Shown here one piece after another: positions 6,524-20,706 of a DNA stretch of 35,208 bases. The stretch comes from Alphaproteobacteria bacterium (GTDB taxonomy: Bacteria > Pseudomonadota > Alphaproteobacteria > JBFXJJ01). The stretch's first letter is position 1; each line of letters opens with the position of its first letter. The stretch spans positions 1 to 35,208 of the forward strand of contig JBFXJJ010000019.1 of the NCBI GenBank assembly GCA_050175015.1. The letters run 5' to 3'. The notes under the pieces are model-generated. The model was not told the origin of the DNA. It searched no databases and saw nothing but the letters and a program-made list of their open reading frames with translations. The position numbers and the translations under genes were made by a program.

Positions 6524-8217
6524 TTAAGCATTTCTAATAGTCTCAATAAAGTTTGCTACTTCATTCTTGAGCTGAGCAGACTTTTGAGAAAGTTCTTTAG
6601 AGGCTGCTAAAACTTCGCTTGCGGCGGCACCTGCTTCTCCTGCAGCTTGGGTTACGCCGGCAATGTTACTGGATACTTCAGCGGTTCCTTGAGATGCTTG
6701 TTCAACATTACGTGAAATCTCAGATGTTGCAGCACCTTGTTCTTCAACAGCAGAAGCGATTGCAGCTGATATTTCATCAATCTTATCAATCACGGTTCCG
6801 ATGTTGGTGATAGCTGATACAGCTTGATCGGTTTTGCTTTGAACGTCAGAAATTTGAGTAGATATTTCTTCGGTTGCACGTGCCGTTTGGTTAGCAAGAT
6901 TCTTAACTTCACTAGCAACAACCGCAAATCCTTTACCCGCATCACCAGCTCTAGCGGCTTCAATCGTAGCATTAAGAGCAAGTAAGTTGGTTTGGTTAGC
7001 TATATCGGTAATAAGTTCAATAACTTCACTAATTCTTTGTGCAGATTGAGCCAGTCCGCCAACAACTTGGTTAGTAGATTGTACTTCTTCTACGGCTTGT
7101 CTAGCTATAGCTGATTCTTCAGTTACTTGTCTTGAAATCTCAGTAATAGAGTTAGAAAGTTCTTCAGCAGCAGCGGCAACAGTTTGAACGTTTGCAGCGG
7201 CTTGTTCCGAAGCTGCAGCAACAGCAGTTGCTTGTTGAGCTGTTTGCTCAGAAATAGCTGACATACTTTCTGCGGTAGAATTCATTTCGGTAGCGGCAGC
7301 AGATACAGCGTCAACAATACCCATAACAGCTTTTTCGAAATCATCGGCTAACTTATGCATCATTTCTTTCTTTTCTTGAGCTGCTCTGATTTCAGCTTGT
7401 TTCTGAGCTTCTTCAAGTTCTCTAGCTTTGATAGCATTTTGACGGAAAATTTCTACATTGCGAGCCATATCGCCAACTTCACTTTTATCAAGATATTGAC
7501 TTACATCGATCTTGGTATTGCCATTTGATAAATCAATCATAAGCTTTCCTAAACCTTCAAGCGGCTTAGTAATAGTGCTGGCAAAGGTTACAGAAAGACC
7601 AATAGCAATCACAAGAACTATGATTAAAGCAACAGCGCTTTCGATAACTTTTTGTTTGAAAATAACTTCAATGTCGTCAATCCATATACCTGATGCAACA
7701 ACCCAACCCCATTCAGGAAAATCAACAGCAAAAGACAATTTTAAAGAAGGAATAGTTTCGCCTTGTTTTGCCCACATATAATAGACAGTTCCACGACCTT
7801 TATCTCTAGCAACACGATTGAGTTCTGAAATAAATTTTGTACCATCAGCGTCAGATAGATTGGCAACGTCTTTTCCAACTAAGCTTGGGTGAGCAATCAT
7901 ACCGTTATTGACTAGGTCATAATCTTGAATCCAAATATAGTTGTTGCCGTCATAACGCATTCCGTTGACTGCTCTTATGGCAAGTTTTTTAGCTTCAGCA
8001 ACGGTTATTTCGCCACTCTTTGCCATTTCAGCGTAGGATTTGATAGTATTGGTTGCAGCATCTACCAAATCTTCGGTTTTAATTATGCGGTCTTCTAATA
8101 ATTCTTTTTTAGTGCTTTTAGGTTTAAAACGGCAACTGTTATAAGACCGATAACAATTATCGTGTTTATGATAAAAAATCTTTTTCCAATTTTTAAATTA
8201 CGAATTGAATTTAACAT
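6524..8217 (-). CDS. Methyl-accepting chemotaxis protein (TM-sCache-TM-HAMP-MCP signal); frameshifted at the A6 tract 8105-8110 (564 aa if restored)
   Basis: MCP signature [40 protein letters not shown] at 8217 with a GGAGG RBS encodes TM1 but reaches TAG at 8095-8097. The remainder (track ORF 6524..8068) is in the -1 frame. The paralog at 20375 has A7 at the same site. Confidence 0.88.
7885..8217 (-). repeat. Dispersed repeat, copy 1 (5' part of the MCP gene)
   Basis: 333 nt aligning to 20042-20375 (334 nt) with about 33 mismatches and one 1-nt gap. Confidence 0.9.
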
Positions 8218-18549: not shown

Positions 18550-18625
18550 TGGTGCCGCCTATGTGACTTGAACACACGACCCTCGCATTACGAATGCGAT
18601 GCTCTACCAGCTGAGCTAAGGCGGC
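18550..18625 (-). tRNA. tRNA-Thr (anticodon CGT), CCA encoded
   Basis: GCCGCCT TA GCTC AGCTGGTA GAGC A TCGCA TT CGT AA TGCGA GGGTC GTGTG TTCAAGT CACAT AGGCGGC A CCA; 76-nt cloverleaf. Confidence 0.97.
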
Positions 18626-18680: not shown

Positions 18681-19928
18681 TTAACTGTTTTTTTCAAAAC
18701 TAGCAGAACTTGCACGATATTCATTAAAAGAACCTTTGGTTTCTAAATATTTGTTGCCTAAAATTTTGATAATAAAAGCTCCAATAGGGGCGGTGATAAT
18801 AATACTGATTACCGCCATGGAAAGGATTATTTCTCCAGGCGCAGAGTTCATACCGTTGGCTTTCATTGCGGCGAGAGGAACGGCACCTATGGCAGCCTGT
18901 ACGGTTGCTTTGGGTAAGTATGATGCTATAACAAAAATTCTTTCTCCAAAATTTAGTTTGCTTTTTATGAGGCATATTAGAACACCTATACTTCTAGCAA
19001 CTAAGCCTAAAATTAAAACTAAAAATCCTGCTAAGCCTGTTGCTAAGGCGACTTTTATATTTAGTTGTGATCCGATAAGAGTAAAAAGCAGAATTTCGGC
19101 AAAAATCCAAATTTTAGCAAGTTTAGCTGCAATTTCGTGAGCCATATATTCACGGTATTCGAGAATAATAAAGCCTAAAACCATTGATGCCAAAAGGGGA
19201 GAAAATGCAATTATAGAAAAATTCTTTTCAAGATTAATAAATAAAATAGCAATAGCAATAATAATAAGCACTCGTTTAGTTGCTCTAGGATTAAATTTTT
19301 CAAACAATTTACACAAAATAAAGCCTGTAATTGTTCCGATTATAATTCCTGTAAAGATTGAAATTGGGATATTTATTAAGGTGGTAACAATCGAGGTTTG
19401 TTTTCCTAAATAAATCATTAAAAATATGCCATTGGCGACGATAACGTTGATGTCATCAATAGAAGCTCCTGCTAAAACTAAGGTTGGGACTCCTTTTTCT
19501 CCGCCCCGCTTTTTCTGTATAAAATCAAGCATCAAGGGAACAATAACGGCAGGCGATACTGCCGCTAAAACCGTTCCTAGAAGGGTTGCTTCAAGAGGTG
19601 TTATGCCAAGAAGTTTGGGAGCAACTAAAGTTATGCCGACAATTTCACAAGTAGCGGGAATAAAAGATAACAGAATGGCTCTGAAGCCAACCTCGGCAAG
19701 CGTCTCTCTGCTTAAAGATAAGCCCGCTCGGAGCAGAATGACAACTAAGGCAATAGTTCTAAAATCGGTTGCTGTATCAATAAGTTCTGGGCGAATTAAA
19801 TTTAAGGCGTTAGATCCTAGTATAATGCCTAAAACAAGCATTCCCAGCAATCCAGGCAGTTTTGCTTTGCGGAATAAGTAATCAAAGAAAAGACCTAAAA
19901 TAGCAATTTCAGCAAGACCCAAAGCCAT
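18681..19928 (-). CDS. Cation:proton antiporter (Na+/H+ or K+/H+ exchanger, CPA superfamily, NHA2/NapA-like)
   Basis: About 12 hydrophobic segments; motifs ILLRAGL, AAVSPAVIVP, GASIDD, AEILLF, YLPKATVQAAIG; AAGGAG RBS. Confidence 0.9.
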   Translation of the reverse strand: MALGLAEIAILGLFFDYLFRKAKLPGLLGMLVLGIILGSNALNLIRPELIDTATDFRTIALVVILLRAGLSLSRETLAEVGFRAILLSFIPATCEIVGITLVAPKLLGITPLEATLLGTVLAAVSPAVIVPLMLDFIQKKRGGEKGVPTLVLAGASIDDINVIVANGIFLMIYLGKQTSIVTTLINIPISIFTGIIIGTITGFILCKLFEKFNPRATKRVLIIIAIAILFINLEKNFSIIAFSPLLASMVLGFIILEYREYMAHEIAAKLAKIWIFAEILLFTLIGSQLNIKVALATGLAGFLVLILGLVARSIGVLICLIKSKLNFGERIFVIASYLPKATVQAAIGAVPLAAMKANGMNSAPGEIILSMAVISIIITAPIGAFIIKILGNKYLETKGSFNEYRASSASFEKNS

Positions 19929-19940
19929 AAAACATACTCC

Positions 19941-20375
19941 TTATTTTTTTCGCCTGTTATCATAGTATGTTTGTTTGGAAATAAACTGCTTACCATTAGC
20001 ATCAGTCATATTTGATACATTTTTGCCAATCAGGCTTTTGGTTGGGTGAGCAATCATACCGTTATTGGCTAAATCATAATCTTGAATCCAAATATAGTTG
20101 TCACCGTCATAACGCATTCCGTTGACAGCGTTTATGGCAAGTTTTTTAGCTTCAGCAACGGTTATTTCGCCGCTTTTTGCCATTTCAGCGTAGGATTTGA
20201 TAGTATTGGTTGCGGCATCTACCAAATCTTCAGTTTTGATAATACGGTCTTCTAATAGCTCTTTTTTTAGAGCGTTTAGGTTTAAGGCCGCAACAGTCAC
20301 AATACCAATAACAATTATGGTATTGATTATTAAAAATCTTTTTCCGATTTTTAAATTACGAATTGAATTTAACAT
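19941..20375 (-). pseudogene. Truncated chemoreceptor copy (TM1 plus partial sCache domain, 144 aa)
   Basis: About 90% nt identity by hand count to 7885-8217. Homology ends after GKQFIS and the ORF closes with an unrelated KQTYYDNRRKK; no TM2, HAMP or signalling domain. Confidence 0.75.
20042..20375 (-). repeat. Dispersed repeat, copy 2 (truncated MCP copy)
   Basis: See copy 1; many differences fall at synonymous positions. Confidence 0.9.
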
Positions 20376-20420
20376 TTTTTATCTTCCCCAAATTCTTATA
20401 AATAAAACAAAATGTTTTAT

Positions 20421-20611
20421 GGTGATCGGGGTGTTGATAACCTTCCAAGAGAAAAGGCGTAATAGTCTTTAGCTGCACAAAAATGCGCACCCTGTACATA
20501 CACTAAGACCACCCCGATCATAAAAATCGAGGTGACACAAAAAACTACGGCCGTGTCAATGACCGCTCCTGGACAGGGTTATCAAGCCCCGAGTTTGTAT
20601 CTCCACAAACT
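20421..20611 (-). ncRNA. Structured leader RNA resembling c4/CI antisense-RNA (ash-type) regulatory elements
   Basis: GC-richer non-coding island. It contains a 7-bp hairpin (20592-20611), an 11-bp perfect inverted repeat (20423-20433 / 20510-20520), a 9-bp perfect inverted repeat (20434-20442 / 20577-20585), CCAGGAG/CTCTTGG pairing (20566-20572 / 20445-20451) and a TGACAC/GTGTCA stem. Family assignment is by recalled architecture, not by search. Confidence 0.6.
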
Positions 20612-20706
20612 AAATAAAATGTTACTTGAAATATTTTATAAAAGAAAGATTAAAGTGTGTTTTTTGCAAAAAACAACTTTTATTTGCTTGAAAAAATATT
20701 CCGCGA

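Follow-up and report, generated by a model that had tools for sequence, protein, structure and literature searches.

The c4 RNA of phage P1, an RNA of ~77 nt that is made by RNase P, controls the antirepressor of phage immunity. In the annotation of the P1 record used as reference (L075:240-475), two short sites, a1 and b1, stand before c4 and a second pair, a2 and b2, stands behind it; c4 is reportedly treated as an RNase P substrate in work by Hartmann and colleagues from 1995. A second RNA, sRNA-Xcc1 (Rfam family RF02221), was identified in Xanthomonas as an 88-nt RNA by Northern blotting and end mapping (PMC2996969). In integron cassettes it precedes symE (bioRxiv 10.1101/2025.06.18.660453), in APSE phages it lies upstream of an ORF6N protein gene, and a Xylella genome table lists it in tandem with C4 and isrK (PMC12189769). 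The available excerpts describe sRNA-Xcc1 as a trans-acting small RNA (sRNA) whose mechanism is not established; those from the works on APSE phages and Xylella, which name both it and the C4 antisense RNA, contain no statement of a like mechanism. One paper lists the c4-a1b1 motif, without an Rfam number. Here we analyzed a 35,208-nt contig of an alphaproteobacterium (assembly GCA_050175015.1, contig JBFXJJ010000019.1; the window), in which an earlier note, made from the sequence alone, had proposed a c4 antisense-RNA switch wired to a cation:proton antiporter. We favor, with moderate confidence, the reading that positions 20422-20593 of the minus strand encode a structured 5′ leader RNA of the c4/sRNA-Xcc1 kind, a two-fold switch that would act on the next gene. 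On this reading, which is held at that same strength as a whole, the RNA belongs to a family absent from Rfam that would form a distant branch of the c4/sRNA-Xcc1 kind of cis-encoded antisense RNA.

Two conserved, mutually exclusive folds

Every motif that the earlier note had listed for this region is present on the minus strand where it had been placed (Table 1). Folding of the 191-nt leader gave a minimum free energy (MFE) of -69.9 kcal/mol (z = -4.94), a value matched by none of 200 shuffled sequences; with the downstream flank included, the MFE fold reached -75.7 kcal/mol. In the minimum-energy structure of the window sequence, fold A, an outer GGGG:CCCC helix together with a1:a′ and b1:b′ encloses the P2 hairpin, a hairpin between segments 2 and 3 (segment 3, written ATCGGGGTG in this fold, pairing with CACCTCGAT), and hairpin P4-P5. 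The segment 1:segment 4 helix is found in both window MFE folds, with and without the flank. When the unit bounded by segments 3 and 4 was folded alone (-38.5 kcal/mol, z = -4.24), its 11-bp stem was closed and P4-P5 was formed, with b′ in a small second hairpin and a′ single-stranded beside the closing stem.

Both structures are kept across the family. In an alignment of 52 homologues (A6), 91.1% of the cells of fold A are paired, compared with 36-50% when the partners are slid, and 45 of 47 pairs change on both sides; none of 500 shuffles reached the observed values, and the outcome had been alike for an earlier 30-row set. Changes on both sides were found for 12 of the 13 pairs of helix 1 (a1:a′, 89.4% of cells paired), all six pairs of helix 2 (b1:b′, 97.9%), all six of helix 3 (P2, 83.6%), all nine of helices 4 and 5 (segment 2:segment 3, 86.5-91.9%) and 12 of the 13 in helices 6 and 7 (P4-P5). 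The outer helix (A6 columns 4-7:351-354) is G-C in 32-49 of the 52 rows per pair and has a few two-sided changes. G-U pairs are kept in fold A. The a1:a′ and b1:b′ pairings proposed in the earlier note are borne out by this covariation and by the z-score of the fold.

The closing stem formed by segments 3 and 4, which the note had seen as a competitor of the a1 pairing, is paired in 93.0% of cells over the same 52 rows, compared with 38-56% for slid partners. At one of its pairs (columns 210:350), U-A is present in 19 rows and A-U in 15, and the same segment 3 position also co-varies with segment 2. Since fold A and the 11-bp stem exclude each other and yet both are kept across the family, the remark that the leader has two alternative folds holds. 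We conclude that the RNA has two conserved, mutually exclusive folds, A and B, the latter defined by the closing stem.

The helices do not diverge evenly. Among four paralogues of one genome (G002), the b helix has a pairwise difference of 0.51, compared with at most 0.12 for every other helix; the b helix is hypervariable. The P4/P5 loop columns vary least (pairwise difference 0.19), and the family consensus of the best-conserved unpaired nucleotides of P4-P5 is GTRTATGTYCARG / CYAAARAC.

An RNA family and its relation to sRNA-Xcc1 and c4

Five copies of the RNA were found in this genome by profile search with nhmmer, and also by covariance model R1: the window copy, two on contig C1, one on C12 and one on C45. 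A first search of the genome with the leader had given two further copies. In all five, a1:a′ and b1:b′ are complementary, with sequences that differ among the copies. Model R1 was built from eight sequences with a hand-set structure on alignment A3, which replaced the poor structure returned by RNAalifold on a three-sequence MAFFT alignment. Of 151 genomes sampled from the same class (probably Alphaproteobacteria), 22 contained full-length matches to R1, as many as nine in a single genome, and the leader RNA is ~170 nt long in the family. A pattern scan of one genome per species gave 27 loci, all in records titled Alphaproteobacteria and distributed over Candidatus Enterousia, Sphingomonadaceae and uncultured lineages. 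A search of a phage collection gave no match for the sphingomonad version; two weak 51-nt matches were seen there for another member, L060.

The sphingomonad versions are plasmid-borne (19 of 26 records are typed as conjugative), with up to three copies per plasmid, and one lies beside ParB-, zincin- and nuclease-type genes. Records titled Sphingomonas, Hephaestia and Altererythrobacter (L019, L024 and L035) share an identical stretch of about 280 nt that takes in the element and its flanks; this identity across records titled as three genera, together with the copies on conjugative plasmids, points to recent horizontal spread. These features, and the presence of several copies per genome, would also suit a mobile repeat or single-stranded DNA element that has no role as RNA, such as a miniature inverted-repeat transposable element or an Frpo-like leading-strand promoter of conjugative plasmids. 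The retained G-U pairs and the U-run terminators that follow many copies are nevertheless strand-specific features of RNA, the copies share the strand of the next open reading frame (ORF) and co-vary with its ribosome-binding site, and the related sRNA-Xcc1 is a detected RNA. We regard a pure DNA element as highly improbable. In an Frpo, the arm of the hairpin on the side of the gene recreates -35 and -10 hexamers, according to the part of the source available (PMC11541004). No -10-like hexamer at the right spacing was recognized by eye in the 3′ arm of the window copy or of two other copies, and the Frpo idea was dropped because no promoter mimic was seen and terminators follow the element.

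The window RNA is not a member of c4 or sRNA-Xcc1 as Rfam defines them. Searches with 951 nt and 131 nt of the window gave no RF02221 match even at E values up to 10 (cut-off, 53 bits) and no match to the c4 model RF01695 at its gathering score or at E values up to 10; the whole genome (G000) had no RF02221 match. In 17 related loci no Rfam family reached threshold, and RF01695 gave no match at E values up to 1. The earlier note had named c4, nhaA-I, DUF1646, ydaO and other families for comparison, and no family matched the window copy. Five of the 17 related loci did match the whole 87-position RF02221 model with their 3′ unit, at 31.7-42.7 bits against the cut-off of 53, and one of these five reached an E value of 1.8e-6 in a local search.

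RF02221 is itself common in the phylum and exceeded its cut-off in 24 of the 151 sampled genomes. At most of 14 true RF02221 loci (L076-L089), the annotated 87-nt RNA is preceded by GGGG-a1-CCCC, b1, and a GCGG hairpin followed by a U-run, and this upstream part aligns with the P1 c4 leader (alignment A8). In at least seven of the 14, an a2-Shine-Dalgarno-b2 arrangement lies just before the next ATG; a2b2 scores of 14 or more were reached at five of the 14 loci, compared with one of 210 non-cognate pairs, and the P1 control scored 17. From these comparisons, sRNA-Xcc1 looks like a c4-type device and the window family looks like a further branch of the c4 kind. Because five relatives match RF02221 below threshold and the true loci carry a c4-like leader, we consider the c4 analogy largely right at the level of kind and mechanism.

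The window unit and sRNA-Xcc1 have the same topology: a closing stem of 9-11 bp, then a hairpin whose internal loop is conserved, then another hairpin or b′ region, and finally a C-rich tail; the unit folded alone shows the closing stem, two internal hairpins and C-rich 3′ tail that make up the structure of the RF02221 model. True sRNA-Xcc1 members share the upstream GGGG-a1-b1-GCGG hairpin arrangement with the window family. The P2 hairpin and U-run of the window resemble the GCGG hairpin and TATTTTTGTG of the sRNA-Xcc1 and P1 c4 leaders, and in P1 the hairpin GCGGAC...GCGGTATTTTTGTG between b1 and the unit resembles that in sRNA-Xcc1 leaders. The internal loops differ, however (GTRTATGTYCARG in the window family, AAUACAAYA in sRNA-Xcc1), and, unlike sRNA-Xcc1, most window-family members have an anti-Shine-Dalgarno segment in place of a2b2.

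With P1 c4 the window shares the order a1, b1, and then a unit with b′ followed by a′, and the complementarity of a1 and b1 to a′ and b′ inside a stem-closed unit, which characterizes c4, is seen in the covariation of helices 1 and 2 over 52 rows. The P1 closing stem starts GGUGGGG; in contrast to the window stem, it has about 17 pairs in the predicted MFE fold and does not compete with the a1b1:a′b′ fold. Antirepressor-type genes lie behind a2b2 in P1 and in two window-family members. Whereas c4 controls an antirepressor, the window RNA is followed by an sCache_2 fragment and a Na_H_Exchanger gene, antirepressors being present only in the relatives L060 and L044. Release by RNase P also has no more than a hint in the window family, a stem followed by RCCA, which the accessible part of one report gives as a mark of RNase P substrates (PMC11143913): of 55 members, 23 have RCCA immediately 3′ of the stem and 36 have NCC there.

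The Brt RNAs of Bartonella, likened to the window family by description only, provide a further lead. They are structured RNAs of 194-203 nt, present in an alphaproteobacterium in nine copies, each 10-18 nt upstream of a gene and with a terminator- or riboswitch-like 3′ part, and the excerpt available calls them genus-specific on BLAST evidence (PMC5387305).

Segment 4, the next gene and the antiporter

With examination confined to the same strand, an ORF was found behind every copy examined except L033, which runs off the end of its contig. Behind many copies stand a hairpin and U-run that overlap segment 4; other copies lead straight into the ribosome-binding site. In members without a2b2, the region that begins at the end of a′ and includes segment 4 can pair with the next gene's ribosome-binding site, and the two sequences vary together: AACACCC is found with GGGTGTT or GGAGTGTT, AACTCCC with GGGAGTT, AACATCC with GGATGTT, and AACTTCT with GGAAGTT. 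Scores of 6 or more for this pairing were reached by 20 of 51 members with their cognate site, compared with 566 of 2472 non-cognate pairs, and none of 5000 permutations reached the cognate mean. Segment 4 thus co-varies with the ribosome-binding site. Since segment 4 could pair in three ways, with segment 1, with segment 3 or with the ribosome-binding site, we read the RNA as a cis-acting translational switch. The leader most likely sets translation of the gene directly behind it, as judged from the sequence comparisons, and in other copies it may also set termination.

The a2b2 arrangement of c4 was evaluated with exact-word tests, which replaced a duplex-energy test confounded by G+C content. 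Copies of a1 or b1 near the next start are not general in the family (mean longest shared word, 5.60 for cognate and 5.57 for non-cognate pairs). Clear a2b2 sites are present in two of 55 members, L060 and L044, where they lie at the start codon and score above all 2970 non-cognate pairs; L060 precedes an AntA/AntB antirepressor gene, and L044, on an IMG/VR contig, precedes a Rha-family gene. Of the c4 switch proposed in the earlier note, then, the succession of a1b1 and a stem-closed unit with b′ and a′ stands, as does a chain of similarity through sRNA-Xcc1, but 53 of the 55 members have no a2b2.

The genes behind the RNA are diverse. They include restriction-modification methylases, a Type ISP enzyme, outer-membrane beta-barrels and a PMP-repeat protein; many encode small proteins without a Pfam match, several of them with signal-peptide or lipoprotein-like starts as judged by eye. 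In this genome copies precede genes for a Cache chemoreceptor, a DUF1232 protein and an Fe-hydrogenase-like protein, and the C45 copy precedes a Type ISP restriction-modification enzyme (L013, 3-2231, minus strand; Mrr_cat_2, ResIII and ISP_coupler). At Enterousia loci the element lies before EcoRI-type, HsdM and N6_N4 methylases. Defense genes recur behind the RNA, and placement before non-phage genes is the rule in the family, which agrees with the earlier note's suggestion that a c4-like switch may be in use outside phages.

A different explanation for such leaders is that they are riboswitches, in which the P4/P5 internal loop and junction bind a small molecule or ion, stabilizing fold A and thereby freeing the ribosome-binding site or preventing termination. 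The RNA is large, has many helices and is always in leader position; its unpaired nucleotides are best conserved (the loop difference of 0.19), and an anti-Shine-Dalgarno segment and terminators are typical expression platforms. The presence of many copies per genome fits as well, riboswitches for cyclic di-GMP also being found in many copies per genome. On the other hand, no common pathway unites the downstream genes (methylases, outer-membrane proteins, lipoproteins, proteins without a family, antirepressors and chemoreceptors), the b helix diverges fastest among paralogues, and the RNA is similar to antisense RNAs that act through RNA pairing. No known riboswitch class matches: the Rfam 15 riboswitch models (nhaA-I, DUF1646, ydaO and the rest) gave no hit in the window or in the 17 related loci. 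We consider a ligand-binding riboswitch improbable.

At the window locus, the intergenic leader (20376-20706) lies between a GGDEF-EAL gene and a 144-aa ORF. The earlier note had missed this ORF, which lies between the unit and the antiporter; the next gene is this truncated sCache_2 fragment, and the antiporter is second (Table 1). Over its first ~133 codons the 144-aa ORF has 86-87% protein identity (tblastn, 8217-7823) and about 90% DNA identity to the start of a chemoreceptor gene at 6524-8217 (-), which encodes a full-length methyl-accepting chemotaxis protein with sCache_2. The similarity of the duplicated DNA starts about 25 nt 5′ of the ATG and stops about 40 nt short of the stop codon, and the ORF is a recently duplicated copy of the chemoreceptor gene's 5′ end. 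The start of the chemoreceptor gene was itself matched by tblastn in two reading frames (8217-8104 and 8110-7823), so a frameshift may be present in the 5′ part of that gene. The stop codon of the 144-aa ORF overlaps the Shine-Dalgarno sequence of the antiporter gene, so the two genes probably form one operon.

Table 1. Elements of the leader RNA and of the genes behind it, in the numbering of the whole window, minus strand
Feature	Position	Strand	Description
Hairpin P0, AGTTTGT-GGAGAT-ACAAACT	20611-20592	-	7 bp, directly 5′ of the RNA; transcript or promoter-region element
Structured leader RNA	20422-20593	-	All 169 positions of model R1; 120.7 bits, E 2.5e-25
Segment 1, TCGGGG	20592-20587	-	5′ strand of outer helix; partner in fold A is CCCCGA of segment 4
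a1, TTGATAACC	20585-20577	-	Partner a′
b1, CCAGGAG	20572-20566	-	Partner b′; most variable helix of the family
P2 hairpin, GCGGTC...GGCCGT, and U-run AGTTTTTTGT	20566-20537	-	Terminator-like
Segment 2, CACCTCGAT	20534-20526	-	Local partner of segment 3 in fold A
Segment 3, TGATCGGGGTG	20520-20510	-	Fold B: 5′ strand of the 11-bp closing stem; fold A: pairs with segment 2
Hairpin P4-P5	20509-20459	-	Best-conserved internal loop, GTGTATGTACAGG ... CTAAAGAC
b′, CTCTTGG	20451-20445	-	Partner b1
a′, GGTTATCAA	20442-20434	-	Partner a1
Segment 4, CACCCCGATCA, and CCA tail	20433-20420	-	Stem strand 20433-20423; can pair with segment 1, segment 3 or the Shine-Dalgarno region of the next gene
Shine-Dalgarno region of first ORF, TTGGGGAAG	20391-20383	-	6 bp possible with CCCCGA of segment 4, including one G-U
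First downstream ORF, 144 aa	19941-20375	-	Transmembrane segment and truncated sCache_2 (Pfam profile positions 9-94 of 155)
Candidate a2, TGATAAC; candidate b2, AGGAG	19962-19956; 19941-19937	-	b2 is the antiporter Shine-Dalgarno sequence, before the ATG at 19928
Antiporter gene, Na+/H+ exchanger family	18681-19928	-	Pfam Na_H_Exchanger, E 1.5e-35; second gene behind the RNA

The candidate a2 and b2 sites lie where the 144-aa ORF ends, about 460 nt past the unit, with a2 in the short junction beyond the duplicated piece. They would be expected if this were a true c4-type switch on the antiporter, in which a′ and b′, in a processed unit or in the leader in cis, pair with a2 and b2 and block the ribosome-binding site; the chemoreceptor fragment would then be a later insertion between unit and target. 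Both sites exist, as the earlier note had claimed, and AGGAG is the Shine-Dalgarno sequence. Only 12 of 544 AGGAG-N4-12-ATG sites in the genome, the window site included, have an a1 7-mer within 40 nt upstream. Start-codon a2b2 sites are common in the wider group (at least seven of the 14 sRNA-Xcc1 loci, and P1), with two of 55 in the family, and the unequal gaps in the window (4 and 14) are no objection because those of P1 are also unequal (a1-b1, 7; a2-b2, 22). Without the ~90% identical intervening duplicate, a2 would lie an estimated few tens of nucleotides from the unit. Against this, the candidate a2 is a 7-mer and b2 is the 5-nt Shine-Dalgarno sequence itself, with a chance expectation of about 2%, and their summed match of 12 was reached by 24 of the 210 non-cognate pairs of the sRNA-Xcc1 test. 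The target is distant, 53 of 55 family members do without a2b2, and the closest relatives for a comparison of conservation are at class level only. The sites are thus weak against the genomic background and without comparative support. Control of the antiporter through a2b2, which could coexist with a switch on the next gene, is in our judgment unlikely, and the specific wiring to the antiporter, like any sensing of ions, remains unsupported.

The surroundings are those of a chromosome. Pfam scans of the neighborhood, which covered 15 ORFs over about 14 kb in one direction and 9 kb in the other, gave either no family or ordinary chromosomal ones, such as purA, motA/motB, cheR, a pseudouridine synthase and UDP-glucose dehydrogenase; no phage gene is nearby. 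A transfer RNA (tRNA) gene (18553-18625, minus strand, 68.6 bits) lies 56 nt downstream of the antiporter stop codon. Just past the GGDEF-EAL stop codon, positions 20630-20700 match their own reverse complement at 78% over 71 nt and include the palindrome GTTTTTTGCAAAAAAC; this segment may be a two-way terminator. A promoter scan found no minus-strand site within 20376-20620. Hairpins adjoining the 5′ GGGG, as P0 does here, were also recognized by eye in other copies. Within the leader, the P2 hairpin and U-run (20537-20566) score as an intrinsic terminator 5′ of the unit and could be an early attenuation point or an Hfq site. A 164-nt contig from a wastewater run (X1) is identical to 20491-20592, has adapter-like letters exactly at 20592, and has a different P5 hairpin beyond 20491, from which we conclude that a variant copy exists in that sample. 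A look through sequencing runs gave no RNA run containing the locus; X1 is labeled RNA-Seq yet was judged to be probably DNA, and nothing was deduced from it about expression or RNA ends.

Working model and implications

In the mechanism that we favor for a switch on the next gene, fold A pairs GGGG, a1 and b1 with b′, a′ and CCCC, and segment 2 with segment 3. In fold B, segments 3 and 4 close a ~100-nt unit of c4/sRNA-Xcc1 topology that exposes b′ and a′ and ends in the CCA tail. The unit may be released as a ~100-nt RNA, as c4 and sRNA-Xcc1 are, and this RNA, or another signal, would bind a1b1 of new transcripts from its own locus. Segment 4 would be freed by this binding and would close the ribosome-binding site or complete a terminator, turning the gene off. 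Cross-talk among the five copies would be prevented by the variable b helix, whose place as the most divergent part among close paralogues is what one expects of a specificity determinant. Our view of the switching step is guided by the hypervariable b helix, by the stem-RCCA in 23 of 55 members, and by the fact that c4 and sRNA-Xcc1 are short RNAs. A switch driven by a ligand or protein is the main alternative to a released RNA as trigger.

Several observations weigh against this picture. Alignment A6 was fitted to model R1, which favors fold A, and the shuffle and permutation counts overstate significance because the sequences are related. Rfam scans of the window returned only the tRNA and chance-level matches, and R1 in turn does not match true sRNA-Xcc1 loci or P1 at E values up to 10; the proposed link to both rests on scores below threshold and on alignment by eye. 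Processing by RNase P is suggested only by the stem and RCCA of fewer than half of the members (23 of 55). The window copy has only 6 bp between segment 4 and the ribosome-binding site (CCCCGA:TTGGGG, score 5.5), a weaker pairing than in many members, and because the locus is a recent mosaic its current wiring may not reflect long selection.

The window family is an unannotated, widespread structured RNA with strong covariation and several copies per genome, outside all Rfam models, and it ties the P1 c4 immunity RNA to sRNA-Xcc1. Its distribution suggests that a phage immunity switch was taken over many times for ordinary genes, such as those for outer-membrane proteins, lipoproteins, restriction-modification enzymes and chemoreceptors. 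As a natural two-state RNA whose specificity helix can be exchanged and whose output is simply a ribosome-binding site, it is open to direct testing, and it could also interest RNA engineers. A more speculative proposal, which we advance with low confidence, is that the family is a domesticated phage-immunity module of orthogonal, self-addressed switches, in which each ~100-nt RNA would target, through b′ and a′, its own a1b1 only. If so, sRNA-Xcc1 would be the same device as c4, and each gene would gain a private feedback or memory loop.

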